Position numbers and translations under genes: made by a program. From Eledone cirrhosa (taxonomy: Eukaryota): a DNA stretch of 64,000 bases. Below, piece after piece: positions 4,198 to 56,287 of the stretch (position 1 is the first letter of the stretch; each line of letters starts with the position of its first letter). The stretch lies in NCBI GenBank assembly GCA_964016885.1, contig OZ024741.1:364374001-364438000 (forward strand), given 5' to 3'. Under the pieces are notes generated by a model that was not told where the DNA came from, did no database searches, and saw only the letters and a list, made by a program, of their open reading frames with translations.

Positions 4198-4225
4198 ATA
4201 ATATTGCATTGGAAGATTTCAATAT

Positions 4226-5714: not shown

Positions 5715-6463
5715 TTGCACTGGAGATTTCAATATAAACATGTTAAAACAGTAAGTTTTGTATCAGAGGACCAAAGTTGGTCTCATGATGGTTAATTCTC
5801 ATTTGTCATCATCATCATCATCTGTATCAAATAAGAATGGTAATTTATTGTGAGATCTCTGTTAGAAAAATTCTCTTAATTGATAAGACTAGTTCTTGAG
5901 CTTATTTCAAATCTGCCTTCTATTAAAGTATGTCAATTCTAATTCATTGCAAATGTAATCGTATATTTTGAGTTTTGAATTGGTCATATCTAACATAATT
6001 TGATTAATTGGTTTTTGAAAATTTATTTCTATGAAAAATAAAAAAATTGCTGTTACTGTTTTTTCTTTTTGAAGAAGTCAAACTGAAACTTATCTTGTTC
6101 ATGAGGTTAATGCTTCAACTTGTGATTTACTTTGTTAATTTTATGAGTAAATCTTAATTAGGGATTCCAGACCATATAAATGAGTTTTCCACAAGTCAGT
6201 ACCACATCAACAACCCACAGGGTACCCATTCTTTTAACACTCCTCAAGTACATTCCCTCTTTTTTTCTAAAATTTTGAAAACCTAGGATTATTTCTAAGT
6301 TGACAGTATTTTTCAACTGCTAAAAAGTCTTTGATTCCAAAACACAAATGAATGTACTAGAGTTACTTCCAGACAAAAGAGAAATTATACATCATTGTGA
6401 CAATATTTCACAAATTAATAGTCTTCCTACCTTCTATTACATTGGTTCCTAAATATATTTTAG

Positions 6464-7520: not shown

Positions 7521-8176
7521 TCAATCGACCTGTTATGCTCTAAATTAAAATCCTGCCAAGGTTAACTTTGCTTTTCATATTTCCAGTATTGATAAAATAT
7601 ATTACCACTACCAGTCAAGTACTGAGGTCAATTTCATCAACTAAACTCTCCTACAAATATATGTGGCCTTGATACAATGTTAGAAATTTATATATTTATG
7701 AAAGTAACTGTTGGCACCAGGAAGAGCATTCAGTCATAAAACATTGTCTCAAAAAGGATCCTGTGATGAGTATTGAGCTTATCATGAGACCTGCAAGGTT
7801 AATCTATATTTTAGCAGGGAAAAATGGCCTTAAAATGGTTTTGGAATGAAGGTTCTACCACTATATAATGTTACCCTTTAAAGTTGGCCAGATCAGAGGA
7901 GTGTGCACAATATATTTTGAGGGAACCTAATCACATCAAGTTCTCATCCTTTTATTCTGTTTTGTTACTTGTAGGTATATCATATATTCTGCATGTACAT
8001 ATATAAATCTATAACCCATACATACATCATATGTATTTAGCACTGATTACTAAAACACTTAATCAACTGCTTGAAATAGGGTGACAGTGCATTTGGAACC
8101 TACAATTTACAAACATCTGAAAAATGTCACAATAAACTGCACTGCTGCACAAATGTAGAAAAGAAAATGGAGCGTA

Positions 8177-14100: not shown

Positions 14101-17100
14101 AGCATCTACTGTCTATTAGTCACTGTAACCTTACCTGAGCAGTGAAAACATGCCTTTGGTCTTTAGCATCTACTGTCTATTAGTCACTGTCACCTTACCT
14201 GAGCAGTGAAAACATGCCTTTGGTCTTTAGCATCTACTGTCTATTAGTCACTGTCACCTTACCTGAGCAGTAAAAACATGCCTTTGGTCTTTAGCATCTA
14301 CTGTCTCCTAGTCACTGTCTCCTTACCTGAGCAGTGAAAACATGCCTTTGGTCTGTAGCATCTACTGTCTACTAGTCACTGTCACCTTACCTGAGCAGTA
14401 AAAACATGCCTTTGGTCTTTAGCATCTACTGTCTCCTAGTCACTGTCTCTTTACCTGAGCAGTGAAAACATGCCTTTGGTCTTTAGCATCTACTGTCTAC
14501 TAGTCACTGTCACCTTACCAGAGCAGTAAAAACATGCCTTTGGTCTTTAGCATCTACTGTCTACTAGTCACTGTCACCTTACCTGAGCAGTAAAAACATG
14601 CCTTTGGTCTTTAGCATCTACTGTCTACTAGTCTCTGTCACCTTACCTGAGCAGTGAAAACATGCCTTTGGTCTTTAGCATCTACTGTCTACTAGTCACT
14701 GTCACCTTACCTGAGCAGTGAAAACATGCCTTTGGTCTTTAGCATCTACTGTCTACTAGTCACTGTCAACTTACCTGAGCAGTAAAAACATGCCTTTGGT
14801 CTTTAGCATCTACTGTCTACTAGTCACTGTCAACTTACCTGAGCAGTAAAAACATGCCTTTGGGCTTTAGCATCTACTGTCTACTAGTCACTGTCAACTT
14901 ACCTGAGCAGTAAAAACATGCCTTTGGTCTTTAGCATCTACTGTCTACTAGTCACTGTCAACTTACCTGAGCAGTAAAAACATGTCTTTGGTCTTTAGCA
15001 TCTACTGTCTACTAGTCACTGTTACCTTACCTGAGCAGTGAAAACATGCCTTTGGTCTTTAGCATCTACTGTCTACTAGTCACTGTCACCTTACCTGAGC
15101 AGTGAAAACATGCCTTTGGTCTTTAGCATCTACTGTCTACTAGTCACTGTCACCTTACCTGAGAAGTGAAAACATGCCTTTGGTCTTTAGCATCTACTGT
15201 CTACTAGTCACTGTCTCCTTACCTGAGCAGTGAAAACATGCCTTTGGTCTTTAGCATCTACTGTCTACTAGTCACTGTCACCTTACCTGAGCAGTGAAAA
15301 CATGCCTTTGGGCTTTAGCATCTACTGTCTACTAGTCACTGTCAACTTACCTGAGCAGTAAAAACATGCCTTTGGTCTTTAGCATCTACTGCCTACTAGT
15401 CACTGTCAACTTACCTGAGCAGTAAAAACATGTCTTTGGTCTTTAGCATCTACTGTCTACTAGTCACTGTTACCTTACCTGAGCAGTGAAAACATGCCTT
15501 TGGTCTTTAGCACCTACTGTCTACTAGTCACTGTCACCTTACCTGAGCAGTGAAAACATGCCTTTGGTCTTTAGCATCTTCTGTCTACTAGTCACTGTCA
15601 CCTTACCTGAGAAGTGAAAACATGCCTTTGGTCTTTAGCATCTACTGTCTACTAGTCACTGTCTCCTTACCTGAGCAGTGAAAACATGCCTTTGGTCTTT
15701 AGCATCTACTGTCTACTAGTCACTGTCACCTTACCTGAGCTGTAAAAACATGCCTTTGGGCTTTAGCATCTACTGTCTACTAGTCACTGTCACCTTACCT
15801 GTGCAGTGAAAACATGCCTTTGGTCTTTAGCATCTACTGTCTACTAGTCACTGTCTCCTTACCTGAGAAGTAAAAACATGCCTTTGGTCTTTAGCATCTA
15901 CTGTCTACTAGTCACTGTCACCTTACCTGTGCAGTGAAAACATGCCTTTGGTCTTTAGCATCTACTGTCTACTAGTCAATGTCACCTTACCCGAGCAGTA
16001 AAAACATGCCTTTGGGCTTTAGCATCTACTGTCTACTAGTCACTGTCACCTTACCTGAGCAGTGAAAACATGCCTTTGGTCTTTAGCATCTACTGTCTAC
16101 TAGTCACTGTCACCTTATCTGAGCAGTGAAAACATGCCTTTGGTCTTTAGCATCTACTGTCTACTAGTCACTGTCACCTTATCTGAGCAGTAAAAACATG
16201 CCTTTGGGCTTTAGCATCTACTGTCTACTAGTCACTGTCACCTTACCTGAGCAGTGAAAACATGCCTTTGGTCTTTAGCATCTACTGTCTACTAGTCACT
16301 GTCACCTTATCTGAGCAGTAAAAACATGCCTTTGGTCTTTAGCATCTACTGTCTACTAGTCACTGTCTCCTTACCTGAGCAGTGAAAACATGACTTTGGT
16401 CTTTAGCATCTACTGTCTACTAGTCACTGTCACCTTATCTGAGCAGTGAAAACATGCCTTTGGTCTTTAGCATCTACTGTCTATTAGTCACTGTCACCTT
16501 ACCTGAGCAGTGAAAACATGCCTTTGGTCTTTAGCATCTACTGTCTACTAGTCACTGTCACCTTATCTGAGCAGTGAAAACATGCCTTTGGTCTTTAGCA
16601 TCTACTGTCTATTAGTCATTGTCACCTTACCTGAGCAGTGAAAACATGCCTTTGGTCTTTAGCATCTACTGTCTACTAGTCACTGTCACCTTATCTGAGC
16701 AGTGAAAACATGCCTTTGGTCTTTAGCATCTACTGTCTACTAGTCACTGTCACCTTACCTGAGCAGTGACAACATGCCTTTGGTCTTTAGCATCTACTGT
16801 CTACTAGTCACTGTCTCCTTACCTGAGCAGTGAAAACATGCCTTTGGTCTTTAGCATCTACTGTCTACTAGTCACTGTCACCTTATCTGAGCAGTGAAAA
16901 CATGCCTTTGGTCTTTAGCATCTACTGTCTATTAGTCACTGTCACCTTACCTGAGCAGTGAAAACATGCCTTTGGTCTTTAGCATCTACTGTCTACTAGT
17001 CACTGTCACCTTATCTGAGCAGTGAAAACATACCTTTGGTCTTTAGCATCTACTGTCTACTAGTCACTGTCACCTTACCTGAGCAGTGAAAACATGCCTT

Positions 17101-20100
17101 TGGTCTTTAGCATCTACTCTCTACTAGTCCCTGTCTCCTTACCTGAGCAGTGAAAACATGCCTTTGGTCTTTAGCATCTACTGTCTACTAGTCACTGTCT
17201 CCTTACCTGAGCAGTGAAAACATGACTTTGGTCTTTAGCATCTACTGTCTACTAGTCACTCTCACCTTACCTGAGCAGTAAAAACATGCCTTTGGTCTTT
17301 AGCATCTACTGTCTACTAGTCACTGTCACCTTATCTGAGCAGTGAAAACATGCCTTTGGTCTTTAGCATCTACTGTCTATTAGTCACTGTCACCTTACCT
17401 GAGAAGTGAAAACATGCCTTTGGTCTTTAGCATCTACTGTCTACTAGTCACTGTCACCTTACCTGAGCAGTGAAAACATGCCTTTGGTCTTTAGCATCTA
17501 CTGTCTACTAGTCACTGTCACCTTACCTGAGCAGTAAAAACATGCCTTTGGTCTTTAGCATCTACTGTCTACTAGTCACTGTCTCCTTACCTGAGCAGTG
17601 AAAACATGCCTTTGGTCTTTAGCATCTACTGTCTACTAGTCACTGTCACCTTACCTGAGCAGTAAAAACATGCCTTTGGGCTTAAGCATCTACTGTCTAC
17701 TAGTCACTGTCACCTTATCTGAGCAGTGAAAACATGCCTTTGGTCTTTAGCATCTACTGTCTACTAGTCACTGTCTCCTTACCTGAGCAGTGAAAACATG
17801 CCTTTGGTGTTTAGCATCTACTGTCTACTCGTCACTGTCACCTTATCTGAGCAGTAAAAACATGCCTTTGGGCTTTAGCATCTACTGTCTACTAGTCACT
17901 GTCACCTTATCTGAGCAGTAAAAACATGCCTTTGGGCTTTAGCATCTACTGTCTACTAGTCACTGTCACCTTATCTGAGCAGTGAAAACATGCCTTTGGT
18001 CTTTAGCATCTACTGTCTACTAGTCACTGTCTCCTTACCTGAGCAGTGAAAACATGACTTTGGTCTTTAGCATCTACTGTCTACTAGTCACTGTCACCTT
18101 ACCTGAGCAGTAAAAACATGCCTTTGGTCTTTAGCATCTACTGTCTACTAGTCACTGTCACCTTATCTGAGCAGTGAAAACATGCCTTTGGTCTTTAGCA
18201 TCTACTGTCTATTAGTCACTGTCACCTTACCTGAGCAGTGAAAACATGCCTTTGGTCTTTAGCATCTACTGTCTACTAGTCACTGTCACCTTACCTGAGT
18301 AGTGAAAACATGCCTTTGGTCTTTAGCATCTACTGTCTACTAGTCACTGTCTCCTTACCTGAGCAGTGAAAACATGCCTTTGGTCTTTAGCATCTACTGT
18401 CTATTAGTCACTGTAACCTTACCTGAGCAGTGAAAACATGCCTTTGGTCTTTAGCATCTACTGTCTATTAGTCACTGTCACCTTACCTGAGCAGTGAAAA
18501 CATGCCTTTGGTCTTTAGCATCTACTGTCTATTAGTCACTGTCACCTTACCTGAGCAGTAAAAACATGCCTTTGGTCTTTAGCATCTACTGTCTCCTAGT
18601 CACTGTCTCCTTACCTGAGCAGTGAAAACATGCCTTTGGTCTGTAGCATCTACTGTCTACTAGTCACTGTCACCTTACCTGAGCAGTAAAAACATGCCTT
18701 TGGTCTTTAGCATCTACTGTCTCCTAGTCACTGTCTCTTTACCTGAGCAGTGAAAACATGCCTTTGGTCTTTAGCATCTACTGTCTACTAGTCACTGTCA
18801 CCTTACCAGAGCAGTAAAAACATGCCTTTGGTCTTTAGCATCTACTGTCTACTAGTCACTGTCACCTTACCTGAGCAGTAAAAACATGCCTTTGGTCTTT
18901 AGCATCTACTGTCTACTAGTCTCTGTCACCTTACCTGAGCAGTGAAAACATGCCTTTGGTCTTTAGCATCTACTGTCTACTAGTCACTCACCTTACCTGA
19001 GCAGTGAAAACATGCCTTTGGTCTTTAGCATCTACTGTCTACTAGTCACTGTCAACTTACCTGAGCAGTAAAAACATGCCTTTGGTCTTTAGCATCTACT
19101 GTCTACTAGTCACTGTCAACTTACCTGAGCAGTAAAAACATGCCTTTGGGCTTTAGCATCTACTGTCTACTAGTCACTGTCAACTTACCTGAGCAGTAAA
19201 AACATGCCTTTGGTCTTTAGCATCTACTGTCTACTAGTCACTGTCAACTTACCTGAGCAGTAAAAACATGTCTTTGGTCTTTAGCATCTACTGTCTACTA
19301 GTCACTGTTACCTTACCTGAGCAGTGAAAACATGCCTTTGGTCTTTAGCATCTACTGTCTACTAGTCACTGTCACCTTACCTGAGCAGTGAAAACATGCC
19401 TTTGGTCTTTAGCATCTACTGTCTACTAGTCACTGTCACCTTACCTGAGAAGTGAAAACATGCCTTTGGTCTTTAGCATCTACTGTCTACTAGTCACTGT
19501 CTCCTTACCTGAGCAGTGAAAACATGCCTTTGGTCTTTAGCATCTACTGTCTACTAGTCACTGTCACCTTACCTGAGCAGTGAAAACATGCCTTTGGACT
19601 TTAGCATCTACTGTCTACTAGTCACTGTCAACTTACCTGAGCAGTAAAAACATGCCTTTGGTCTTTAGCATCTACTGCCTACTAGTCACTGTCAACTTAC
19701 CTGAGCAGTAAAAACATGTCTTTGGTCTTTAGCATCTACTGTCTACTAGTCACTGTTACCTTACCTGAGCAGTGAAAACATGCCTTTGGTCTTTAGCATC
19801 TTCTGTCTACTAGTCACTGTCACCTTACCTGAGAAGTGAAAACATGCCTTTGGTCTTTAGCATCTACTGTCTACTAGTCACTGTCTCCTTACCTGAGCAG
19901 TGAAAACATGCCTTTGGTCTTTAGCATTTACTGTCTACTAGTCACTGTCACCTTACCTGAGCAGTAAAAACATGCCTTTGGGCTTTAGCATCTACTGTCT
20001 ACTAGTCACTGTCACCTTACCTGTGCAGTGAAAACATGCCTTTGGTCTTTAGCATCTACTGTCTACTAGTCACTGTCTCCTTACCTGAGAAGTAAAAACA

Positions 20101-23100
20101 TGCCTTTGGTCTTTAGCATCTTCTGTCTACTAGTCACTGTCACCTTACCTGAGAAGTGAAAACATGCCTTTGGTCTTTAGCATCTACTGTCTACTAGTCA
20201 CTGTCACCTTACCTGTGCAGTGAAAACATGCCTTTGGTCTTTAGCATCTACTGTCTACTAGTCAATGTCACCTTACCCGAGCAGTAAAAACATGCCTTTG
20301 GGCTTTAGCATCTACTGTCTACTAGTCACTGTCACCTTACCTGAGCAGTGAAAACATGCCTTTGGTCTTTAGCATCTACTGTCTACTAGTCACTGTCACC
20401 TTATCTGAGCAGTGAAAACATGCCTTTGGTCTTTAGCATCTACTGTCTACTAGTCACTGTCACCTTATCTGAGCAGTAAAAACATGCCTTTGGGCTTTAG
20501 CATCTACTGTCTACTAGTCACTGTCACCTTACCTGAGCAGTGAAAACATGCCTTTGGTCTTTAGCATCTACTGTCTACTAGTCACTGTCACCTTATCTGA
20601 GCAGTAAAAACATGCCTTTGGTCTTTAGCATCTACTGTCTACTAGTCACTGTCTCCTTACCTGAGCAGTGAAAACATGACTTTGGTCTTTAGCATCTACT
20701 GTCTACTAGTCACTGTCACCTTATCTGAGCAGTGAAAACATGCCTTTGGTCTTTAGCATCTACTGTCTATTAGTCACTGTCACCTTACCTGAGCAGTGAA
20801 AACATGCCTTTGGTCTTTAGCATCTACTGTCTACTAGTCACTGTCACCTTATCTGAGCAGTGAAAACATGCCTTTGGTCTTTAGCATCTACTGTCTATTA
20901 GTCACTGTCACCTTACCTGAGCAGTGAAAACATGCCTTTGGTCTTTAGCATCTACTGTCTACTAGTCACTGTCACCTTATCTAAGCAGTGAAAACATGCC
21001 TTTGGTCTTTAGCATCTACTGTCTACTAGTCACTGTCACCTTACCTGAGCAGTGACAACATGCCTTTGGTCTTTAGCATCTACTGTCTACTAGTCACTGT
21101 CTCCTTACCTGAGCAGTGAAAACATGCCTTTGGTCTTTAGCATCTACTGTCTACTAGTCACTGTCACCTTATCTGAGCAGTGAAAACATGCCTTTGGTCT
21201 TTAGCATCTACTGTCTATTAGTCACTGTCACCTTACCTGAGCAGTGAAAACATGCCTTTGGTCTTTAGCATCTACTGTCTACTAGTCACTGTCACCTTAT
21301 CTGAGCAGTGAAAACATACCTTTGGTCTTTAGCATCTACTGTCTACTAGTCACTGTCACCTTACCTGAGCAGTGAAAACATGCCTTTGGTCTTTAGCATC
21401 TACTGTCTACTAGTCCCTGTCTCCTTACCTGAGCAGTGAAAACATGCCTTTGGTCTTTAGCATCTACTGTCTACTAGTCACTGTCTCCTTACCTGAGCAG
21501 TGAAAACATGACTTTGGTCTTTAGCATCTACTGTCTACTAGTCACTCTCACCTTACCTGAGCAGTAAAAACATGCCTTTGGTCTTTAGCATCTACTGTCT
21601 ACTAGTCACTGTCACCTTATCTGAGCAGTGAAAACATGCCTTTGGTCTTTAGCATCTACTGTCTATTAGTCACTGTCACCTTACCTGAGAAGTGAAAACA
21701 TGCCTTTGGTCTTTAGCATCTACTGTCTACTAGTCACTGTCACCTTACCTGAGCAGTGAAAACATGCCTTTGGTCTTTAGCATCTACTGTCTACTAGTCA
21801 CTGTCACCTTACCTGAGCAGTAAAAACATGCCTTTGGTCTTTAGCATCTACTGTCTACTAGTCACTGTCTCCTTACCTGAGCAGTGAAAACATGCCTTTG
21901 GTCTTTAGCATCTACTGTCTACTAGTCACTGTCACCTTACCTGAGCAGTAAAAACATGCCTTTGGGCTTAAGCATCTACTGTCTACTAGTCACTGTCACC
22001 TTATCTGAGCAGTGAAAACATGCCTTTGGTCTTTAGCATCTACTGTCTACTAGTCACTGTCTCCTTACCTGAGCAGTGAAAACATGCCTTTGGTGTTTAG
22101 CATCTACTGTCTACTCGTCACTGTCACCTTATCTGAGCAGTAAAAACATGCCTTTGGGCTTTAGCATCTACTGTCTACTAGTCACTGTCACCTTATCTGA
22201 GCAGTAAAAACATGCCTTTGGGCTTTAGCATCTACTGTCTACTAGTCACTGTCACCTTATCTGAGCAGTGAAAACATGCCTTTGGTCTTTAGCATCTACT
22301 GTCTACTAGTCACTGTCTCCTTACCTGAGCAGTGAAAACATGCCTTTGGTCTTTAGCATCTACTGTCTACTAGTCACTGTCACCTTATCTGAGCAGTAAA
22401 AACATGCCTTTGGGCTTTAGCATCTACTGTCTACTAGTCACTGTCACCTTATCTGAGCAGTAAAAACATGCCTTTGGGCTTTAGCATCTACTGTCTACTA
22501 GTCACTGTCACCTTATCTGAGCAGTGAAAACATGCCTTTGGTCTTTAGCATCTACTGTCTACTAGTCACTGTCACCTTATCTGAGCAGTAAAAACATGCC
22601 TTTGGGCTTTAGCATCTACTGTCTACTAGTCACTGTCACCTTATCTGAGCAGTAAAAACATGCCTTTGGGCTTTAGCATCTACTGTCTACTAGTCACTGT
22701 CACCTTATCTGAGCAGTGAAAACATGCCTTTGGTCTTTAGCATCTACTGTCTACTAGTCACTGTCACCTTATCTGAGCAGTAAAAACATGCCTTTGGGCT
22801 TTAGCATCTACTGTCTACTAGTCACTGTCACCTTATCTGAGCAGTAAAAACATGCCTTTGGGCTTTAGCATCTACTGTCTACTAGTCAATGTCACCTTAT
22901 CTGAGCAGTGAAAACATGCCTTTGGTCTTTAGCATCTACTGTCTACTAGTCACTGTCACCTTATCTGAGCAGTAAAAACATGCCTTTGGGCTTTAGCATC
23001 TACTGTCTACTAGTTACTGTCACCTTATCTGAGCAGTAAAAACATGCCTTTGGGCTTTAGCATCTACTGTCTACTAGTCACTGTCACCTTATCTGAGCAG

Positions 23101-26100
23101 TGAAAACATGCCTTTGGTCTTTAGCATCTACTGTCTACTAGTCACTGTCACCTTATCTGAGCAGTAAACACATGCCTTTGGGCTTTAGCATCTACTGTCT
23201 ACTAGTCACTGTCACCTTATCTGAGCATTGAAAACATGCCTTTGGTCTTTAGCATCTACTGTCTACTAGTCACTGTCACCTTATCTGAGCAGTAAAAACA
23301 TGCCTTTGGGCTTTAGCATCTACTGTCTACTAGTCACTGTCACCTTATCTGAGCAGTAAAAACATGCCTTTGGGCTTTAGCATCTACTGTCTACTAGTCA
23401 CTGTAACCTTATCTGAGCAGTGAAAACATGCCTTTGGTCTTTAGCATCTACTGTCTACTAGTCACTGTCACCTTATCTGAGCAGTAAAAACATGCCTTTG
23501 GGCTTTAGCATCTACTGTCTACTAGCCACTGTCACCTTATCTGAGCAGTAAAAACATGCCTTTGGGCTTTAGCATCTACTGTCTACTAGTCACTGTCACC
23601 TTATCTGAGCAGTGAAAACATGCCTTTGGTCTTTAGCATCTACTGTCTACTAGTCACTGTCACCTTATCTGAGCTGTAAAAACATGCCTTTGGGCTTTAG
23701 CATCTGCTGTCTACTAGTCACTGTCACCTTATCTGAGCAGTAAAAACATGCCTTTTGGCTTTGGCATCTACTGTCTACTAGTCACTGTCACCTTATCTGA
23801 GCAGTGAAAACATGCCTTTGGTCTTTAGCATCTACTGTCTACTAGTCACTGTCACCTTATCTGAGCAGTAAAAACATGCCTTTCGTCTTTAGCATCTACT
23901 GTCTACTAGTCACTGTCACCTTACCTGAGCAGTGAAAACATGCCTTTGGTCTTTAGCATCTACTGTCTACTAGTCACTGTCACCTTATCTGAGCAGTAAA
24001 AACATGCCTTTGGTCTTTAGCATCTACTGTCTACTAGTCACTGTCACCTTATCTGAGCAATGAAAACATGCCTTTGGTCTTTAGCATCTACTGTCTACTA
24101 GTCACTGTCACCTTACCTGAGCAGTGAAAACATGCCTTTGGTCTTTAGCATCTACTGTCTACTAGTCACTGTCACCTTATCTGAGCACTGAAAACATGCC
24201 TTTGGTCTTTAGCATCTACTGTCTACTAGTCACTGTCTCCTTACCTGAGCAGTGAAAACATGCCTTTGGTCTTTAGCATCTACTGTCTACTAGTCACTGT
24301 CTCCTTACCTGAGCAGTGAAAACATGCCTTTGGTCTTTAGCATCTACTGTCTACTAGTCACTGTCACCTTATCTGAGCAGTAAAAACATGACTTTGGTCT
24401 TTAGCATCTACTGTCTACTAGTCACTCTCACCTTACCTGAGTAGTAAAAACATGCCTTTGGTCTTTAGCATCTACTGTCTACTAGTCACTGTCACCTTAT
24501 CTGAGTAGTGAAAACATGCCTTTGGTCTTTAGCATCTACTGTCTATTAGTCACTGTCACCTTACCTGAGCAGTGAAAACATGCCTTTGGTCTTTAGCATC
24601 TACTGTCTATTAGTCACTGTCACCTTACCTGAGCAGTGAAAACATGCCTTTGGTCTTTAGCATCTACTGTCTACTAGTTACTGTCACCTTACCTGAGCAG
24701 TAAAAACATGCCTTTGGTCTTTAGCATCTACTGTCTCCTAGTCACTGTCTCCTTACCTGAGCAGTGAAAACATGCCTTTGGTCTTTAGCATCTACTGTCT
24801 ACTAGTCACTGTTACCTTACCTGAGCAGTGAAAACATGCCTTTGGTCTTTAGCATCTACTGTCTACTAGTCACTGTCACCTTACCTGAGCAGTGAAAACA
24901 TGCCTTTGGTCTTTAGCATCTACTGTCTACTAGTCACTGTCTCCTTACCTGAGCAGTGAAAACATGCCTTTGGTCTTTAGCATCTACTGTCTACTAGTCA
25001 CTGTCACCTTACCTGAGCAGTAAAAACATGCCTTTGGGCTTTAGCATCTACTGTCTACTAGTCACTGTCACCTTACCTGTGCAGTGAAAACATGCCTTTG
25101 GTCTTTAGCATCTACTATCTACTAGTCACTGTCTCCTTACCTGAGCAGTAAAAACATGCCTTTGGGCTTTAGCATCTACTGTCTACTAGTCACTGTCACC
25201 TTACCTGAGCAGTGAAAACATGCCTTTGGTCTTTAGCATCTACTGTCTACTAGTCACTGTCACCTTACCTGAGCAGTAAAAACATGCCTTTGGGCTTTAG
25301 CATCTATTGTCTACTAGTCACTGTCACCTTATCTGAGCAGTGAAAACATGCCTTTGGTCTTTAGCATCTACTGTCTACTAGTCACTGTCACCTTATCTGA
25401 GCAGTGAAAACATGCCTTTGGTCTTTAGCATCTACTGTCTACTAGTCACTGTCACCTTATCTGAGCAGTAAAAACATGCCTTTGGGCTTTAGCATCTACT
25501 GTCTACTAGTCACTGTTACCTTACCTGAGCAGTGAAAACATGCCTTTGGTCTTTAGCATCTACTGTCTACTAGTCACTGTCACCTTATCTGAGCAGTAAA
25601 AACATGCCTTTGGTCTTTAGCATCTACTGTCTACTAGTCACTGTCACCTTATCTGAGCAGAGAAAACATGCCTTTGGTCTTTAGCATCTACTGTCTACTA
25701 GTCACTGTCACCTTATCTGAGCAGTGAAAACATGCCTTTGGTCTTTAGCATCTACTGTCTACTAGTCACTGTCTCCTTACCTGAGCAGTGAAAACATGCC
25801 TTTGGTCTTTAGCATCTACTGTCTACTAGTCACTGTCTCCTTACCTGAGCAGTGAAAACATGCCTTTGGTCTTTAGCATCTACTGTCTATTAGTCACTGT
25901 CACCTTACCTGAGCAGTGAAAACATGCCTTTGGTCTTTAGCATCTACTGTCTACTAGTCACTGTCACCTTATCTGAGCAGTAAAAACATGCCTTTGGTCT
26001 TTAGCATCTACTGTCTACTAGTCACTGTCACCTTACCTGAGCAGTAAAAACATGCCTTTGGTCTTTAGCATCTACTGTCTACTAGTCACTGTCACCTTAT

Positions 26101-27524
26101 CTGAGCAGTGAAAACATGCCTTTGGTCTTTAGCATCTACTGTCTATTAGTCACTGTCACCTTACCTGAGCAGTGAAAACATGCCTTTGGTCTTTAGCATC
26201 TACTGTCTACTAGTCACTGTCACCTTACCTGAGCAGTAAAAACATGCCTTTGGTCTTTAGCATCTACTGTCTACTAGTCACTGTCACCTTATCTGAGCAG
26301 TGAAAACATGCCTTTGGTCTTTAGCATCTACTGTCTATTAGTCACTGTCACCTTACCTGAGCAGTGAAAACATGCCTTTGGTCTTTAGCATCTACTGTCT
26401 ACTAGTCACTGTCACCTTATCTGAGCAGTAAAAACATGCCTTTGGTCTTTAGCATCTACTGTCTACTAGTTACTGTCACCTTACCTGAGCAGTAAAAACA
26501 TGCCTTTGGTCTTTAGCATCTACTGTCTACTAGTCACTGTCACCTTATCTGAGCAGTGAAAACATGCCTTTGGTCTTTAGCATCTACTGTCTATTAGTCA
26601 CTGTCACCTTACCTGAGCAGTGAAAACATGCCTTTGGTCTTTAGCATCTACTGTCTATTAGTCACTGTCACCTTACCTGAGCAGTGAAAACATGCCTTTG
26701 GTCTTTAGCATCTACTGTCTACTAGTCACTGTCACCTTACCTGAGAAGTGAAAACATGCCTTTGGTCTTTAGCATCTACTGTCTACTAGTCACTGTCAAC
26801 TTACCTGAGCAGTGAAAACATGCCTTTGGTTTTTAGCATCTACTGTCTACTAGTCACTGTCACCTTATCTGAGCAGTGAAAACATGCCTTTGGTCTTTAG
26901 CATCTACTGTCTACTAGTCACTGTCACCTTACCTGATCAGTGAAAACATGCCTTTGGTTTTTAGCATCTACTGTCTACCAGTCACTGTCACCTTATCTGA
27001 GCAGTGAAAACATGCCTTTGGTCTTTAGCATCTACTGTCTACTAGTCACTGTCACCTTACCTGAGCAGTGAAAACATGCCTTTGGTCTTTAGCATCTACT
27101 GTCTATTAGTCACTGTCACCTTACCTGAGCAGTGAAAACATGCCTTTGGGCTTTAGCATCTACTGTCTACTAGTCACTGTCACCTTACCTGAGCAGTAAA
27201 AACATGCCTTTGGTCTTTAGCATCTACTGTCTACTAGTCACTGTCACCTTACCTGAGCAGTAAAAACATGCCTTTGGTCTTTAGCATCTACTGTCTACTA
27301 GTCACTGTCACCTTACCTGAGCAGTAAAAACATGCCTTTGGTCTTTAGCATTTACTGTCTACTAGTCACTGTCACCTTACCTGAGCAGTGAAAACATGCC
27401 TTTGGTCTTTAGCATTTACTGTCTACTAGTCACTGTCACCTTACCTGAGCAGTAAAAACATGCCTTTGGTCTTTAGCATTTACTGTATACTAGTCACTGT
27501 CACCTTACCTGAGCAGTGAAAACA
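8177..27524. repeat. 64-bp tandem satellite array, ~302 copies, very homogeneous
   Basis: Unit ccttacctgagcagtgaaaacatgcctttggtctttagcatctactgtctactagtcactgtca; starts at 8177, 8241, 8305 and so on; no unique spacers. Confidence 0.98.
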
Positions 27525-27870
27525 CCTCTGGCCCTCAGCAATCACCAGTCTGTTATTCAGTGTCACCTTAGCTGAGCAGTGAAAACACTTCTTTGGCCCT
27601 CAGCAGTCTGATATTCTGTATTGCCTTAGCTGAGTGATGAAAACAGACCTCTGGATCTCAGCAATCTGCAGTCTGTTTTTCAGTGTCACCTTAGCTAAGC
27701 AGTAAAAACACACCTCTAGCTCTCAACAGTCTGTTATTCAGTGTCATCTTAGCTGAGCAGTGAAAACACACTTCTGGCTCTCAGTAGTCTGTTATTCAGT
27801 GTCACCTTAGCTGTGCAGTGAAAACACGCCAACGGCCCTCATCAGTCAGTCAGTAGCCTGTTAGTCAGTG
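27525..27870. repeat. Five to six diverged monomers of the 64-bp satellite at its right edge
   Basis: Recurrent gtcaccttagctgagcagtgaaaacac with variable remainder and length. Confidence 0.85.
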
Positions 27871-35960: not shown

Positions 35961-36915
35961 GACTATCAGTTGTCAGACTATCAGTTGTCAGACTACCAGT
36001 TGTCAGACTACCGGTTGTCAGACTATCAGTTACCAGACTACCATTTACCGGACTACCATTTACCGGACTACCATTTACCAGACTACCAGTTACCAGACTA
36101 CCATTTACCGGACTACCATTTACCAGACTACCAGTAACCAGACTATCAGTTACCAGACTATCAGTTACCAGACTACCAGTAACCAGACTACCATTTACCA
36201 GACTACCAGTAACCAGACTATCAGTTACCAGACTATCAGTTACCAGACTACCAGTAACCAGACTACCATTTACCAGACTATCAGTTACCAGACTATCAGT
36301 TACCAGACTATCAGTTACCAGACTATCAGTTACCAGACTATCAGTTACCAGACTACCAGTTACCAGACTATCAGTTACCAGACTACCATTTACCAGACTA
36401 CCAGTAACCAGACTACCATTTACCAGACTACCATTTACCAGACTACCATTTACCAGACTACCATTTACCAGACTACCAGTTACCAGACTACCATTTACCA
36501 AACTACCAGTAACCAGACTACCAGTTACCAGACTACCAGTAACCAGACTACCAGTAACCAGACTACCAGTAACCAGACTACCATTTACCAGACTATCAGT
36601 AACCAGACTACCAGTAACCAGACTATCAGTTACCAGACTACCATTTACCAGACTACCATTTACCAGACTACCAGTAACCAGATTACCAGTTACCATACTA
36701 CCAGTTACCAGTCTACCATTTACCAGACTACCACTAACCAGACTACCAGTTACCATACTACCAGTTACCAGTCTACCATTTACCAGACTACCATTTACCA
36801 GACTGCCATTTACTAGACTACCATTTACCAGACTACCATTTACTAGACTACCATTTACCAGACTACCATTTACCAGACTACCATTTACCAGACTATCAGT
36901 TACCAGACTATCAGT
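35961..36915. repeat. 15-bp minisatellite, ~63 copies
   Basis: Unit ccagactaycakt(t/a)a; ends ~70 nt before the kinase exon at 36986. Confidence 0.96.
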
Positions 36916-36985: not shown

Positions 36986-37071
36986 GTTGAAAGAGAAATT
37001 GCAATTATGAAGTTAATAGAACATCCTCATGTTTTGGGATTGTATGATGTATATGAAAATAAAAAATATTT
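36986..37071 (+). CDS. BRSK: BRSK/SAD-1 family Ser/Thr kinase, internal exon (86 nt)
   Basis: Polypyrimidine tract plus tttag acceptor and gtaagt donor; encodes VEREIAIMKLIEHPHVLGLYDVYENKKY(L); phase fits the next exon. Confidence 0.95.
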
Positions 37072-37924
37072 GTAAGTACATAACATTACTGTCTTTGAAA
37101 CAAAACGTGTTTTCCAATATTTTGCACCCACTTTCCAGGCTGGCATATGTTGGAGAGGTTGTCACAGTCCAAGTCAGAGATTATTTGGAGTTATTGTCTA
37201 TTTATATGAATTGAGGGACCATGTCTCACTTCTATGTTTTGGCATGGTTTTCAGGGTGTATTTTGAGGGAGATTTAGGTACTATTTTTGGCAGATTTGGT
37301 GACCACGATTTTTGCTTTGGCTTATGTGAAATTGTATTTGTATTATGTGGTTTCAATATTTTGTATCACTCTTCTACAAACCCATACAAACCACTCAGCT
37401 GAAAAAAATGAATACAAGCTGTAGCAGCAGCTGGGGATTAACCCTTGCAATGGACTCGATGCCAGTCCAGAAGGAAATCTTTTCATGATAGGGCTGGGGC
37501 CCTTACTTAAAAAAAAAAAACTCTTATGAGATGAAAACTCATAGGAGGCCAGCTACATCCACATTTGTTTGAGCTGTAACAACACTACAATTGGCCAGAT
37601 ATATATCATTTGTAGCACAATGAGAAAAACTCAATGCAAGGATAGCTATCAAAACAGCAAAATGCTGCTAATGACGGCATCAGGTAAAATCTTACCTCAA
37701 ATGAAAGGAAATGATCAGCTAGAAGTGTGTTGGTCCAGAAAAGTGATAGGTAGAGAGGAACAAAGGAAGAAAATGGAAAAATGAAAATGAATGAGACAAA
37801 ATCACACAAACACATGTTATGTCATCAGCCCTCGTAATGGAATGTAGTTTCACACGATTTAAAATGGAAGGTACTACATATAATTGCCAGCTCGTGCAAC
37901 AGAAATTAAGTATTTCTGCTCATA

Positions 37925-38260
37925 TGATGTCATCATCATCATCACCATTATACGTCCGCTTTTCCCTGCTTGCAAGGGTTGAATGGGTCCTATTCAGCAC
38001 AGCATTTCTCCACTTGTCATGGTCCTTCGTCAACTCCTCGGTGAGTTTCAGCGATCTGAGGTCTGCTCTCACCACCTCCGCCCATGAATTTTGTGGTCTA
38101 CCTCTACTGCGTCTTCCTTCTACTGGGATTTCTTGGCACTTCTTTACCCAGCGGTCATCCTCCATGCGCATCACATGTCCATACCATCTCAACCTTCTCT
38201 CCTGCACACCACAACTTATCCCTCTTATATCAAGTTTCTTTCTCAACTCGCCCATGCTTG
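37925..38260 (-). mobile_element. RTE LINE 3' end fragment
   Basis: GVQERRLRWYGHVMRMEDDRWVKKC...RSRGRPQNSW followed by a (GAT)n tail. Confidence 0.85.
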
Positions 38261-39016
38261 ACAAAACGAACAAATTAGATAGACAGATAGATATATTGGA
38301 GGGAATATCAATTTTTAACCCTTTTGTTACCATATTTCTAATGAAATACACTTCCTATGTATTTCAGTTTATTTTGAAAATAATAAAAAAAAATTAGAGG
38401 AATTTGATAAAATAACTAAAATTTTCATGAGTAAGCTGATGTTTAGAACATTACTAATAATAAGAAAGTTAATCATATTACTAAATTCCTTCAAAAGCTT
38501 GATTATTTTCAAGATTGTTTGTCTTTCACTTACAATGCAAAGCTGTTTATTTTAAAGCATTCATATTTATCTAAAAACCTTGTATAATAATTTTAAGAAC
38601 CTTTGTTAAGGTTAGTTATATTATAAAACCCGTCTAAAATCTTAATTATTTCCAAAATTATAATTGCAAATTATAGGAACTATCTTTCATTAAAAATATA
38701 TGAAAAAATTGATTAGGTATCTAAATTCATTTAAGTAAGGTTAAGTTTGAGCTAGGCATACTAATCGAGTTCACAGCACTATATGCAATATTTCCTTGAT
38801 TTTCTTTTGTTTCATCTTTAGTTCTTTGTACCAGAAATTTTATTCAATAATGGCTTGGTCAATGTATGATGATTTTCAATTTTTGTTCCTTGTATTCTCT
38901 CTTCACCTATCTTTGATTCACCTCTCATTTAAACTTTCGAACCTACTCCATTTTAATCTTTATTGATTCCTTCTTTGTTAGTTCTTCCATATATAGGAAC
39001 AATCATGGCTATGTGA

Positions 39017-44444: not shown

Positions 44445-44600
<156 letters not shown>

Positions 44601-44764: not shown

Positions 44765-45500
44765 AACTGGGATACATATAAATAAACACAGATATATATA
44801 TATAAACACATGGATGAACTGGATTATACATGGATAAACTGGATATACATGGATAGATTGGGATATTCATGGATAAACTAAATATATATGGATAAATTGG
44901 GATGTTCATGGATAAACCAGGACATACATGAATAAATTGGGATATACATTCATAAACACTGATATACATGGGTAAACAGAGATATCCATGGATATATCAG
45001 GATACACATGGATAAACTGGGATATACATGGATGAACTGGGGTAGACATGGGTATACATGGATAAACACAAATATACATGGATATACATGGATGAACATG
45101 GATATACAAGGATATATATTGATGTACATGGATAAACATGGATAAACTGGGATACACATGGATGAACTGGGATAAACATGGATATACATGGATGAACTGG
45201 GATAAACATGGAGATTTATTGATAAATTGGGATATACATGGATATACACAGATGTAAAAACAACGATGATGCTGCAATATGGAGGGACTGGGATATACAT
45301 TGTTAAACCAGATTATACATGGATAAACTGGGATACACATGAATAAACTAGGATATACATGGATAAACTGGGATAAACATGGATAAACTGGGATAAACAT
45401 GGATAAACTGGGATATACATGAATAAATTGGGAAAAACATGGATAAACTGGTTTATATATGGATATACATGGATGAATTGGGATATACATGGATAGATAT
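44765..45500. repeat. Degenerate 10/11-bp minisatellite (ggataaact / ggatatacat units)
   Basis: Alternating gataaactgg and gatatacatg units beginning ~165 nt after the exon donor. Confidence 0.9.
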
Positions 45501-46711
45501 GTATAATATTTTATTCTTTTAATCTATTATTGGCTCAGTAACAATTCTAGCAATCTATTGCCCCTAAAATGGTATATTTATGAACACTAAAAAGATGAAA
45601 AGCACATAGAACCTCTGTGGGATTTGAATCCCAAGCACAGAGATCTGAAACAAACCCCGAGGTATTTACTATAATACCCCAATGACTTTGCCAATTTGAT
45701 GTCTTTTTCCAAACAAATTGAATAACACAATCACAATACTGAGAGATTAGGTTACATAAATCTAGTTTAGTGTTAGTTATAGTGAATTTTTTATGTTGTT
45801 TTGCTCTCTATAAATGTTCATATTGCCATATTTATGGTTGCTTTACTTCCTTTCGGGGTTGGTAAATATATCAATATAGTACCAGTCCCAGGATAATGGT
45901 TTAGCAGAATTGTTAAAGAGTTGATGGGATGCTTTTCAGTATCTGTTTGTTCTGAGTTCAAATTTTGCCTCCTTCTGCCAGAGTTGGGACTATCAGATGA
46001 TATCAGCAATGGAAGCATCATTTCCTTGGTTTGATCTGATGACCAGTACCTTTACATTTTTGTCATTTCATCCTTTTGGGGGTTGATAAAATAAAGTACT
46101 AGTCCAGGGGCACTATTGTTAAAGAGCCAGACAGGATGATTTATGGTATCTGAGCTGACTCTGTGAGTTCTGAGTTCAAATCCTGTCTGTTTCCTGCAGG
46201 AGATAGTATCAGCAATGGAAAGAATAACAGAAAAATTGTTTCCTTATTCCAATGTAACAATCGCATCCTTTCTTTTTATTATCATTATAGGTTTTATTTA
46301 TTCTGTTATTCCTTTTCTCTATTGCTCTTCAACATAAATTCATTTTCAAATCCTGACTTGGATACATATATCTATGAAATGGAATGAACTGCTGTTATTT
46401 CCAATGATGACTCTTTCAGTTCAGTCAATGGCACAGCCTGCTTGTGAAATTAACATGTATGTGGCCAAGCATTTCATAGACAGGGAGATTTATTGTGACA
46501 TAGTGTGTGACAAAGCTGGCCTTTTGAATTAAAAGTACAGCAGTCCATCTGACAGGCTCTGAAACAGCTTCCATTTACTCCATTTCATGCATAAAACTTG
46601 GAGAGATTCACCATTACACAGTGTGTAACAAGACTAACTTTTTGAATTATAGACACAGCCCATCCAACAGGCTTCTAAGCAGATTCCATTTACTCTATTT
46701 CATGCACAAGG

Positions 46712-51792: not shown

Positions 51793-51909
51793 TCACAGAG
51801 ATTTAAAACCAGAGAATTTGCTTTTAGATGAAAAGAATAATATTAGAGTTGCAGATTTTGGAATGGCATCTTTACAAGTTGAAGGATCAATGTTAGAAAC
51901 AAGCTGTGG
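51793..51909 (+). CDS. BRSK: BRSK/SAD-1 family kinase, internal exon (117 nt; catalytic loop, DFG, activation loop)
   Basis: ctttttcag acceptor, gtaaga donor; encodes (C)[38 protein letters not shown](G). Confidence 0.97.
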
Positions 51910-52235: not shown

Positions 52236-52808
52236 ATCATCATCGTTTAACGTCCATCTTCCACGCTTGCATGGGTTTGGACGGGAATTTTCCCACTTGA
52301 GACAAGATTGGTTGTCTTGCTCGTATAGGACTGCCTGGCGGGTTTTCTATGGCTGGATGCCCTTCCTAACACCAACCACGTTTACAGTGTGGAACTGGGA
52401 GGTTTTTTTTGTTATCTACACGGCCACATTACAGCGTGGACTGTGTGTTTTTTTATCGTGACACCTACATGACCTCATCTATTTAGGACTGGATGTTGTG
52501 GTACCAACATAACTTTACATCGAAAGGGGTGGTGTGGATGGGGTGGGGGTAGTGGGACGGAGGTCTATTTTTGTTAAGAGGTGCCTACTGACTAGGTTTC
52601 GCTTTGTACTTAGGCAAGGCGGGTCTTCTGTATTACTGTGTAGCGCCAAAGATCTCGGTCCAGTGACATTGTCTTGGAGAGGTGTAAGTGTGTGAGGTCG
52701 GAATTTATCAAGTTGTCCCAGATTTTTCTGGGTCTGCCTACTCCGTAGGCTACCATCTATTTTTATCGCCCTGCACTTTTTTATATGGCTGTCGTCTTTC
52801 ACGCACAT
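52236..52808 (-). mobile_element. RTE LINE 3' end, same family as the 2350-3003 segment, between (TA)n runs
   Basis: CVKDDSHIKKCRAIKIDGS, shared ggaagggcatcc 3' motif, (GAT)n tail. Confidence 0.75.
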
Positions 52809-53561
52809 ATATATATATATAAATAAATATACACGGGTGTATATGATTGTGTATAGAAGATTATATTAATAAAAGGAATTCCAACTTTGGTATTATAATG
52901 AAATAGTATGGTAGAATATTAAATATATATATATCTATAATAAAATGGGGAGAAAAATACTGCTGGTAGCACATGGATAACATGTAATAAAATAAGTCCC
53001 TCATCAGTGATTTGCCGACGATCATAGATATTTCATTGCATTAAAAATCATATACCTCACGTCGGTGCAATAATAACTAAATTAAGTTATTAGGACAATT
53101 AAAACGCGTAAAGCGAGTGAGACAAGAAAACAACAAAGAGTAGAGCTAACCGTAGAAGGAAGGAGACAAGCTTCATAGTTATTCTGTTAGCATAAGCTAG
53201 GTGAATATATGAGCGCTTAGAAAAAAGACCTTTCACGAACGAATGCAATGTGAGAAAAGAGAGAAATTGCTTTCTTCGCGAACGGGGTGAAGTGAGGAGA
53301 GGAGAAACAGTGAGTGAGTGAGTGGAAGTGTGAAGGAAGAGTTAACTGACATGACAGAGGGGGCGAAAGAAAGTAGGAGAAACAGAGAGAATGGGGGAGC
53401 AGTATATATATATATATATTTAAAGGTTAAACAAGGTTCAATGAATAAATCAAAGAATAATGTTTTACAATAGATTAGAAGCACTCCACAGTTATGGTTT
53501 TCCGGAGTTATTAATATTAATTCAAAATATTGACAAAAATAGATATTCATGTGATCAAGTA

Positions 53562-53628
53562 TATTTTATTATACATATTTCAGAGGTACTGAGCTATCTT
53601 CAACAGTACGTCCTCATCAGATAAAATA
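53562..53628 (-). ncRNA. Type I hammerhead ribozyme motif
   Basis: The - strand reads TATTTTAT CTGATGA GGACGTACTG ttgaagatagct CAGTACCTCT GAAA TATGTA TA ATAAAATA: intact core, 8-bp helix I, ~9-bp helix II, short near-palindromic helix III. Predicted cut between 53570 and 53569. Confidence 0.8.
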
Positions 53629-53688
53629 AGATGATGCATTGATCACACGAATGTCTATTTTTGTTAATATTTTGAATTTATATATATA

Positions 53689-56142
53689 TAATAGGGTTGT
53701 GGGTGTTACGATGGAGGGCAATAGGGTTGTGGGTGTGACATTGGAGGGTAATAGGGTTGTGGGTGTTACGTTGGAGGGTAATAGGGTTGTGGGTGTGACA
53801 TTGGAGGGTAATAGGGTTGTGGGTGTTACGTTGGAGGGTAATAGGGTTGTGGGTGTGACATTGGAGGGTAATAGGGTTGTGGGTGTGACGTTGGAGGGTA
53901 ATAGGGTTGTGGGTGTGACGTTGGAGGGTAATAGGGTTGTGGGTGTGACGTTGGAGGGTAATAGGGTTGTGGGTGTGACAATGGAGGTTAATAGGGTTGT
54001 GGGTGTTACTTTGGAGGGTAATAGGGTTGTGGGTGTTACGTTGGAGGTTAATAGGGTTGTAGGTGTTACGTTGGAGGGTAATAGGGTTGTGGGTGTTACG
54101 TTAGAGGGTAATAGGGTTGTGGGTGTGACGTTGGAGGGTAATAGGGTTGTGGGTGTGACGTTGGAGGTTAATAGGGTTGTGGGTGTTACGTTGGAGGGTA
54201 ATAGGGTTGTGGGTGTTACTTTGGAGGGTAATAGGGTTGTGGGTGTTATGTTGGAGGTTAATAGGGCTGTGGGTGTTACGTTGGAGGGTAATAGGGTTGT
54301 GGGTGTTACGTTGGAGGGTAATAGGGTTGTGGGTGTTACTTTGGAGGGTAATAGGGTTGTGGGTGTGACGTTGGAGGTTAATAGGGTTGTGGGTGTTACG
54401 TTGGAGGGTAATAGTGTTGTGAGTGTTACGTTGGAGGGTAATAGGGTTGTGGGTGTTACGTTGGAGGGTAATAGGGTTGTGGGTGTGACATTGGAGGGTA
54501 ATAGGGTTGTGGGTGTGACATTGGAGGGTAATAGGGTTGTGGGTGTGACATTGGAGGGTAATAGGGTTGTGGGTGTTACGTTGGAGGGTAATAGGGTTGT
54601 GGGTGTTACGTTGGAGGGTAATAGGGTTGTGGGTGTGACGTTGGAGGGTAATAGGGTTGTGGGTGTTACGTTGGAGGGTAATAGGGTTGTGGGTGTTACG
54701 TTGGAGGGCAATAGGGTTGTGGGTGTTACGTTGGAGAGTAATAGGGTTGTGGGTGTGACGTTGGAGGGTAATAGGGTTGTGGGTGTGACGTTGGAGGGTA
54801 ATAGGGTTGTGGGTGTTACGTTGGAGAGTAATAGGGATGTGGGTGTTACGTTGGAGGGCAATAGGGTTGTGGGTGTTACGTTGGAGGGTAATAGGGTTGT
54901 GGGTGTGACATTGGAGGGTAATAGGGTTGTGGGTGTGACATTGGAGGGTAATAGGGTTGTGGGTGTTACGTTGGAGGGTAATAGGGTTGTGGGTGTTACT
55001 TTGGAGGGTAATAGGGTTGTGGGTGTGACATTGGAGGGTAATAGGGTTGTGGGTGTGACATTGGAGGGTAATAGGGTTGTGGGTGTTACGTTGGAGGGTA
55101 ATAGGGTTGTGGGTGTTACGTTGGAGGGCAATAGGGTTGTGGGTGTTACGTTGGAGGGTAATAGGGTTGTGGGTGTTACGTTGGAGGGCAATAGGGTTGT
55201 GGGTGTTACGTTGGAGGGTAATAGGGTTGTGGGTGTTACGTTGGAGGGTAATAGGGTTGTGGGTGTGACATTGGAGGGTAATAGGGTTGTGGGTGTTACG
55301 TTGGAGGGTAATAGGGTTGTGGGTGTTACTTTGGAGGGTAATAGGGTTGTGGGTGTTACGTTGGAGGGTAATAGGGTTGTGGGTGTGACATTGGAGGGTA
55401 ATAGGGTTGTGGGTGTGACATTGGAGGGTAATAGGGTTGTGGGTGTGACATTGGAGGGTAATAGGGTTGTGGGTGTTACGTTGGAGGGTAATAGGGTTGT
55501 GGGTGTTACTTTGGAGGGTAATAGGGTTGTGGGTGTTACGTTGGAGGGTAATAGGGTTGTGGGTGTTACGTTGGAGGGTAATAGGGTTGTGGGTGTGACG
55601 TTGGAGGGTAATAGGGTTGTGGGTGTGACGTTGGAGGGTAATAGGGTTGTGGGTGTTACTTTGGAGGGTAATAGGGTTGTGGGTGTGACATTGGAGGGTA
55701 ATAGGGTTGTGGGTGTTACGTTGGAGGGTAATAGGGTTGTGGGTGTTACTTTGGAGGGCAATAGGGTTGTGGGTGTTACGTTGGAGGGTAATAGGGTTGT
55801 GGGTGTTACTTTGGAGGGTAATAGGGTTGTGGGTGTTACGTTGGAGGGTAATAGGGTTGTGGGTGTTACTTTGGAGGGTAATAGGGTTGTGGGTGTGACA
55901 TTGGAGGGTAATAGGGTTGTGGGTGTTACGTTGGAGGGTAATAGGGTTTTGGGTGTTACGTTGGAGGTTAATAGGGTTGTGGGTGTTACGTTGGAGGGTA
56001 ATAGGGTTCTGGGTGTGACATTGGAGGGTAATAGGGTTGTGGGTGTTACGTTAGAGGGTAATAGGGTTGTGGGTGTTACGTTGGAGGGCAATAGGGTTGT
56101 GGGTGTTACGTTGGACGGTAATAGGGTTGTGGGTGTGACATT
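53689..56142. repeat. 30-bp G-rich minisatellite, ~82 copies, decaying to ~56257
   Basis: Unit taatagggttgtgggtgttacgttggaggg. Confidence 0.98.
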
Positions 56143-56287
56143 GTAGGGTAAAAGGAAGGCAGGTGTGACGTTGGAGGGCTGTAGGGTGATATGTGTGATG
56201 TTGAAAGAAAATAGGGTGATATCTGATGTTGAAGGGAATTAGGGTGGTAGGTGTCACCTTTTTTTAGGTATCAAAAAATAAGATTTT

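Follow-up and report, generated by a model that had tools for sequence, protein, structure and literature searches.

Introduction

Among the described systems closest to the locus treated here are the Penelope-like elements (PLEs) of the Hydra clade, which are defined by a C-terminal endonuclease without CCHH and by the motifs DKT, RWK, CxCX5C, CxxC and CxH (PMC8557442; this and the other papers below are cited from the sections consulted). Hydra PLEs also carry hammerheads and target (TA)n, and an octopus member, Hydra-1_Obim, has been published (PMC8557442). PLE features reported in the same paper include copies that are inverted and 5'-truncated, a tail confined to one end and a bias towards (TA)n, and the role of the hammerhead in endonuclease-bearing PLEs is stated there as unclear. 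Cleavage by other metazoan PLE hammerheads has been described as weak and as dependent on dimers or protein (PMC4209133). In vitro work on a PLE of Anolis found that both target strands were cut and extended, that two internal reverse transcriptase (RT) starts bound the tail, and that the hammerhead was dispensable, with cleavage assisted by protein (PMC11167929). The non-LTR retrozymes, another class of hammerhead-bearing sequence, are by working definition arrays in which two or more complete hammerhead units follow one another in tandem (bioRxiv 10.64898/2026.07.22.740005).

Here we analyse a 64,000-nt stretch of the Eledone cirrhosa genome (contig OZ024741.1, positions 364,374,001 to 364,438,000), hereafter the window. 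An earlier note, made from the sequence alone, had placed a hammerhead ribozyme on a 160-nt hairpin antisense within a BRSK intron and had proposed that the ~260-bp segment around it was a small, retrozyme-like mobile unit. We conclude that 53419-53678 very probably arose by truncated insertion of a 4.5-kb Penelope-like retrotransposon, likely a member of the Hydra clade. The insertion encodes no protein, and in it a direct copy of the 3' end carrying the hammerhead is joined to an inverted second copy (Table 1).

Table 1. Features of the insertion and its surroundings, in window coordinates
Feature	Position	Strand	Remark
Further kinase exons	36986-37071; 44459-44599	+	
BRSK/SAD kinase exon upstream of the host intron	51793..51909	+	not part of the element
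(TA)n target microsatellite at the element 3' end	53403..53418	.	family copies continue into TA-rich sequence past the same end
PLE tail, 95 nt	53419..53513	-	equals first 95 nt of the next unit
Direct arm, 5'-truncated pLTR end	53514..53639	-	
Type I hammerhead motif	53562..53628	-	predicted cleavage between 53570 and 53569
Helix I 5' strand	53628-53621	-	8 bp with 53569-53562
CUGAUGA core segment	53620-53614	-	
Helix II	53582..53613	-	3 bp, C.C mismatch, 6 bp, 12-nt loop
GAAA	53581-53578	-	shares 53578 with helix III
Helix III palindrome	53571..53578	-	2 bp in the monomer; 8 bp in the dimer, including two G-U pairs
A17	53570	-	AUA cleavage triplet
Helix I 3' strand	53569-53562	-	
Inverted arm, second 5'-truncated copy of the element end	53639..53678	+	starts at the tail-less end site
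(TA)n on the other side of the insertion	53679..53690	.	adjoins a 30-bp minisatellite (53689-56178)

Results

The hammerhead motif and its host intron

The complete type I core described in the earlier note for the - strand, with its 8-bp helix I, palindromic helix III and AUA triplet, is present in the sequence, and CUGANGA, GAAA and UH are all found together with helices I-III. Counted from the core, helix II has the pairs G-U, G-C and A-U, then the C.C mismatch and 6 bp more, for a total of 9 bp. A search of 52500-54700 with the Rfam hammerhead models returned no match at E <= 10. A loose core pattern matched six times in the window against 5.4 expected, which is chance level, and the motif stands above chance because of the covariation across related motifs described below. 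With tertiary contacts ignored, folding put the active fold 6-7 kcal/mol above the predicted minimum, both in the hairpin and in native context, and gave helix I a pairing probability near 0. The helix III dimer was predicted at -2.2 kcal/mol. Self-cleavage is thus predicted to be weak and is likely dependent on a dimer or on protein.

Two of the three kinase exons were searched, and the best PDB match was BRSK2 (E 7e-25 and 3.5e-17). Because exons lie on the + strand at 51793-51909 and, for the next exon, ~6.5 kb past the window end, the element sits antisense in a BRSK intron of ~18.6 kb, as the earlier note had it. The hammerhead in this copy, on the opposite strand, is a passenger that is unable to cut BRSK pre-mRNA in cis.

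Copies of the segment lead to a coding element

We searched the genome with the 262-nt segment and scored the best 40 of 1,687 candidates. These matched with 90-100% identity, and 37 of the 40 were without the first 41 nt (the stem arm). A 19-nt string of the ribozyme core had 6,277 exact matches genome-wide and none when reversed as a control, and the copy-number search proposed in the earlier note thus found the end of the segment in high copy. The copies extend upstream in shared AT-rich sequence, by up to 3.8 kb, and reach an open reading frame (ORF) whose pieces, upstream of the same 3' end, contain YRDD and YIG motifs.

The full unit runs from a 5' UTR of 157 nt through an ORF of ~780 codons (RT, then C-terminal endonuclease) and a 3' UTR to the hammerhead and the end. 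At 20 loci chosen by their RT region, the ORF measured ~2,340 nt from ATG to stop and the 3' UTR ~2,030 nt. Hammerheads in two tandem copies were spaced 4,524 and 4,526 nt apart. In the tandem copies the tail continues directly into the 5' UTR and the ATG follows 63 nt further, ~210 nt downstream of the cleavage site; we identify 53419..53513 as the PLE tail because it is these 95 nt that run into 5' UTR and ATG. The longer copies therefore show what is expected of a PLE, namely a single ORF with RT and GIY-YIG-type endonuclease and a hammerhead that lies in the pLTR in sense orientation to it, and the family has the pLTR partial tandems, inverted 5'-truncated copies and single tailed end of such elements.

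An intact ORF was not found among the 20 RT loci and 30 5'-end loci, where the longest open piece was 477 aa, and three ORF pieces gave no match in Pfam. A homologue search gave 591 sequences at E <= 1e-10 among 7,999 scored, and the best named one came from Argonauta hians (37% identity). One copy (L032:7572-8674) contains a ~530-nt duplication (73% identity) inside its 2-kb 3' UTR, and this duplication accounts for part of the unusual length of the region. In another (L037:2140-4905) a 2.8-kb insertion interrupts the endonuclease region, and we take its transposase-like frames to be piggyBac-like.

Other type I hammerhead families, with distinct palindromic helix III sequences of 6, 8, 9 and 10 nt, flank the fetched loci (for example L008, L012, L014, L026, L027, L030, L034, L044, L047, L064 and L065). 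With so many carried in these flanks, the genome abounds in PLE families that bear hammerheads. Another RT ORF of Hydra type, at L045:9090-8098, looks by eye nearer to Hydra-1_Obim than the present family does.

The hairpin is private to this copy

Window positions 53419-53639 match the element 3' end and depart from the majority base of 21 ungapped copies at four positions, all private. The inverted arm matches the family majority exactly and overlaps the direct arm by 1 nt. The 10x3 internal loop and the 40-bp stem with three differences (53519-53678) were correctly recorded in the earlier note. However, the junction of the two arms was found once in the 3 Gb genome in a search allowing up to 1 mismatch, and the three stem mismatches are all private to the direct arm, with none compensated. 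Stem and loop are therefore accidents of insertion and not ribozyme architecture, and the internal loop, which the earlier note had seen as the place where loop II docks, is no conserved docking site, since loop and 40-bp stem occur in this copy alone. Two other short two-armed copies, L002 and L028, join at different junctions. The z score of the 160-nt fold (-10.2 against 200 shuffles) is due to the inverted repeat. The hairpin was also considered as an amplified mini-element, which the unique junction rules out.

At L126 (G000:C1:63697639-63697899) the inverted-arm junction is filled with 65-bp repeats of the hammerhead 5' half, which suggests repeated template slips while the arms were being joined.

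The ribozyme is conserved and covaries

Across 17 related motifs from fetched loci, core and helix positions are kept while the helices covary, which answers the covariation check put forward in the earlier note. In these motifs 93.5% of cells were paired and 13 of the 19 pairs had changed on both sides, figures that are inflated because the motifs were chosen by a descriptor requiring pairing and are mutually related. None of 500 shuffles scored as high, and slid registers gave 38-55%. The descriptor demanded just three pairs in helix II and five in helix I, so the covariation in distal helix II is unforced. Position 4 of helix II is C in 17/17 motifs and stands opposite C in 13 and U in 4, and the pairs flanking this C-pyrimidine mismatch covary. 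Pair 10.1-11.1 is A-U in ten motifs, G-U in five (and at 53562..53628) and G-C in two. Helix III, which is AUAUAUAU or AUGCGCAU, is palindromic in all 17.

The 13-nt string of core and helix III was unchanged in 83 of the 92 family arms from fetched loci, and ACGU occurred in none of the 92. The earlier note had read helix III as one C-to-U change away from the palindrome AUACGUAU. The arms show that AUAUGUAU is instead the family state, and descent from a decayed CpG palindrome AUACGUAU is not supported. Nor do the homologous copies lack a conserved core, which the earlier note had named, together with a lack of cleavage, as grounds against its reading. The hammerhead is read as a selected structure in the source elements, and one that would likely cut only as a dimer or with the help of protein. 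A literature search under a single wording for the helix II mismatch found no paper with it among the matches listed, and the feature may have been published under another description. The conserved mismatch is a cheap target for mutagenesis.

Copies end at two fixed sites

To describe the ends of the copies we took 39 loci from the core-motif list as they come along the genome, five rows of which were hand-corrected from BLAST output; L120 is doubtful among them, and a 40th, hand-picked locus was left out. Copies end at either of two fixed sites, 56 nt (near) or 151 nt (far) past the cleavage site, and their 5' ends are scattered rather than fixed. The anchored arm ended at the near site in 28 loci and at the far site in 11. 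An inverted arm was present in 21 of the 39, and in 21/21 it ended at the other site. One locus from the RT-selected set, L066, is an exception to this two-end rule, with both arms ending at the near site.

These ends suggest how the insertion may have arisen. The element endonuclease would have cut both strands of the (TA)n tract in the BRSK intron. For one strand RT would have started at the far site, internal to the RNA, and made 221 nt of cDNA across the uncleaved hammerhead; for the other it would have started at the near site and copied ~45 nt. The two cDNAs would then have been joined over a 1-nt overlap, leaving an inverted repeat that by chance closes below helix I. We infer the two primings, one per target strand, from the structure of the insertion and by analogy with the Poseidon-clade protein. 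The two-end rule is a genomic prediction for such twin internal priming.

No pile-up of 5' ends at the predicted cleavage site

Non-native sequence just before the cleavage site was found in 50 of the 3,306 copies that hold the sequence just past it. The first thirty of these 50 rows were inspected; 17 were true junctions, 11 were native with an indel by script and a further two were so by eye. The rate of 5' ends at the cleavage site is therefore ~1%, no more than the rough background. A subfamily variant (1,412 of 6,277) dominated the counts at a control site upstream of the core, where ~5-10 true junctions were seen by eye in the first 100 rows, a similar rate per base in what is a rough comparison. 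With no excess of 5' ends at the cleavage site, linear RNA released by cleavage is an unlikely template for most RT copying, and the template would therefore be uncleaved or re-ligated RNA.

One locus (L156/L157, G000:C184:99510-101280, - strand) is a tandem array of seven units, each starting 0-4 nt ahead of the cleavage site. In six of them the end lies 20 nt beyond the tail, with degenerate (TTAGGG)n of variable length between one unit and the next, and the last reaches the ORF. This array, which is interstitial, lies on an unplaced contig and is the sole such site in the genome, possibly arose by telomerase healing followed by amplification. As a single locus, it was rejected as independent proof of cleavage.

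A more far-reaching reading, which we regard as unlikely, is that the hammerhead of this lineage forms a subtype of its own, marked by a proximal helix II of 3 bp, the invariant C-pyrimidine mismatch and a palindromic helix III of 8 nt. On this reading the RNA would be cut as a dimer and ligated again, RT would copy a circle of unit length, and each insertion would be primed twice, once on each target strand, at the two fixed internal sites. If true, it would explain the partial tandems, the rule that one arm has the tail, and why at least 98% of copies read through the cleavage site, and the > 6,000 young copies would form a direct test bed for PLE hammerhead function in the cell.

Discussion

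Relation to described elements

The family is likely a member of the Hydra clade, an assignment based on motifs. A motif scan of the natural ORF pieces found DKT, CxCX5C, CxxC-E and N-CxH, and CCHH was absent by eye. The endonuclease is C-terminal, DKG is changed to DKT, and there is no N-terminal GxKF/Y. RT4 resembles, by eye, the Hydra rows in the part of Fig. S7 consulted (PMC8557442). With the Hydra PLEs of that paper the family shares the order of RT and C-terminal endonuclease, DKT, the CxCX5C linker, CxxC and CxH, and also a sense-strand hammerhead near the 3' end, (TA)n targets and inverted 5'-truncated copies. The preference for (TA)n seen in the family copies also bears out the view of the earlier note that the hammerhead, of type I and with a short palindrome for helix III, sits in a mobile element inserting into such tracts.

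There are several differences. In place of the RWK of Hydra PLEs, 10 of the 16 copies reaching this position have RWR and none has RWK, a conservative change; the text of Fig. S7 begins past the motif. The unit of 4.5 kb is longer than Hydra-1_Obim of Octopus bimaculoides (2,507 bp) and than published Hydra elements generally (< 3 kb, a general and not a defining feature). Its tail is 95 nt, compared with the 30-40 nt stated for PLEs in PMC8557442, and its 3' UTR is ~2 kb. The Hydra rows of File S2 of that paper, as far as consulted, have another hammerhead sequence and lack the helix II C.C mismatch.

Like the Poseidon PLE of Anolis carolinensis (PAc), the family has two fixed ends bounding the tail, AT-rich targets and read-through of the hammerhead, but PAc belongs to another clade and its ORF starts inside the hammerhead, whereas the ATG here lies downstream of it (PMC11167929, in part). 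The motif resembles the metazoan PLE hammerheads of PMC4209133 (consulted sections) in being type I with a long helix II and a short palindromic helix III expected to dimerise. As there, most motifs are dispersed and single, from truncated PLEs, with some close inverted pairs; pair 10.1-11.1, a conserved G-C in those hammerheads, is G-U here.

The family is therefore apparently an undescribed, high-copy member of a known PLE clade, as set against published Hydra elements by description and against Fig. S7 by eye. A description was not found in the literature searched. The word "undescribed" in the earlier note thus holds for the family but not for the kind, since Hydra PLEs that carry hammerheads and target (TA)n are in print, Hydra-1_Obim among them (PMC8557442). 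Details that appear new are the 2-kb 3' UTR, the 95-nt tail, the invariant helix II C-pyrimidine mismatch, the near-strict rule that the two arms have different ends, and the lack of a 5'-end pile-up at the cleavage site. There is nothing unusual about the locus, whose truncated copy is one among thousands, and the family is of modest importance. It supplies large numbers for the question of what the hammerhead does in endonuclease-bearing PLEs.

Other readings of the insertion

A rival reading, in line with the earlier note, is that the 260-bp hairpin belongs to a small non-autonomous, retrozyme-like family spreading as a unit through circular RNA processed by the hammerhead. The palindromic helix III, the (TA)n on both sides and the shortness of many family copies are in keeping with this, and retrozymes have been proposed to derive from PLE pLTRs (bioRxiv 10.64898/2026.07.22.740005, in part). 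A contig from another study also has a strand-switch joint at nearly the same place, although it may be the same locus from another animal. Non-LTR retrozymes and this family do share a type I hammerhead, an animal genome and a link to the PLE pLTR (bioRxiv 10.64898/2026.07.22.740005; see also PMC7229834). However, the sections of the preprint consulted describe non-coding tandem units, whereas this family encodes an RT and is dispersed with variable 5' truncation. The locus holds a single motif and no tandem array, its hairpin junction is unique, the 5' ends of copies are not fixed, and the first 100 of the 6,277 core matches listed include eight divergent (inverted) pairs within 2 kb against two same-strand clusters. 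One of these clusters is two copies split by (TA)n and the other is 65-bp repeats without the core 3' half. With tandem complete units missing from a mostly dispersed or inverted family, and with a coding 4.5-kb element of variable 5' truncation in place of a fixed-length non-coding unit, we give a retrozyme-like origin almost no credence; the ~260-bp segment is better read as a 5'-truncated and inverted insertion of the 4.5-kb coding PLE.

The inverted arm could also have been made from the same element by fold-back, the first cDNA folding through the helix I complement and priming itself. It is suggestive that the loop between the arms is exactly the hammerhead, and pairing between the helix I strands would place the 3' end of the cDNA close to the junction. 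Yet copying of this kind should reach the far end site, and the inverted arm starts at the near site common to thousands of copies. Neither can it give overlapping arms, which L003, L004 and L019 have, and fold-back is accordingly improbable. A third possibility is co-option of the copy to affect BRSK expression, either as a ribozyme antisense in the intron or as a double-stranded RNA element. Its core is intact, and the 40-bp stem could form in BRSK pre-mRNA too because an inverted repeat folds on either strand. However, the copy is ~98% identical to a young family in which 83/92 arms are intact, so that no selection is needed to explain an intact core. None of the three stem mismatches is compensated, the ribozyme strand is opposite to the pre-mRNA strand, and the active fold lies 6 kcal/mol above the minimum with a helix I pairing probability near 0 (tertiary contacts ignored). 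We think it most improbable that this copy acts on BRSK. Insertion by two primings of a PLE therefore remains the preferred reading.

Other repeats in the window

The 30-bp minisatellite that begins at the (TA)n flank of the insertion has 83 copies (53689-56178), and its unit contains TAGGGTT, which is telomeric-repeat-like. Upstream of the three BRSK exons, a 64-bp minisatellite of ~303 copies (19.4 kb) occupies window positions 8176-27827, and 15-bp (35961-36915) and 20/30-bp (44808-45506) minisatellites lie near the BRSK exons. Decayed ORF pieces at 1190-2360 (+), 4200-5750 and 37900-38350 (-) are presumably LINE (RTE-type) reverse transcriptase-like.
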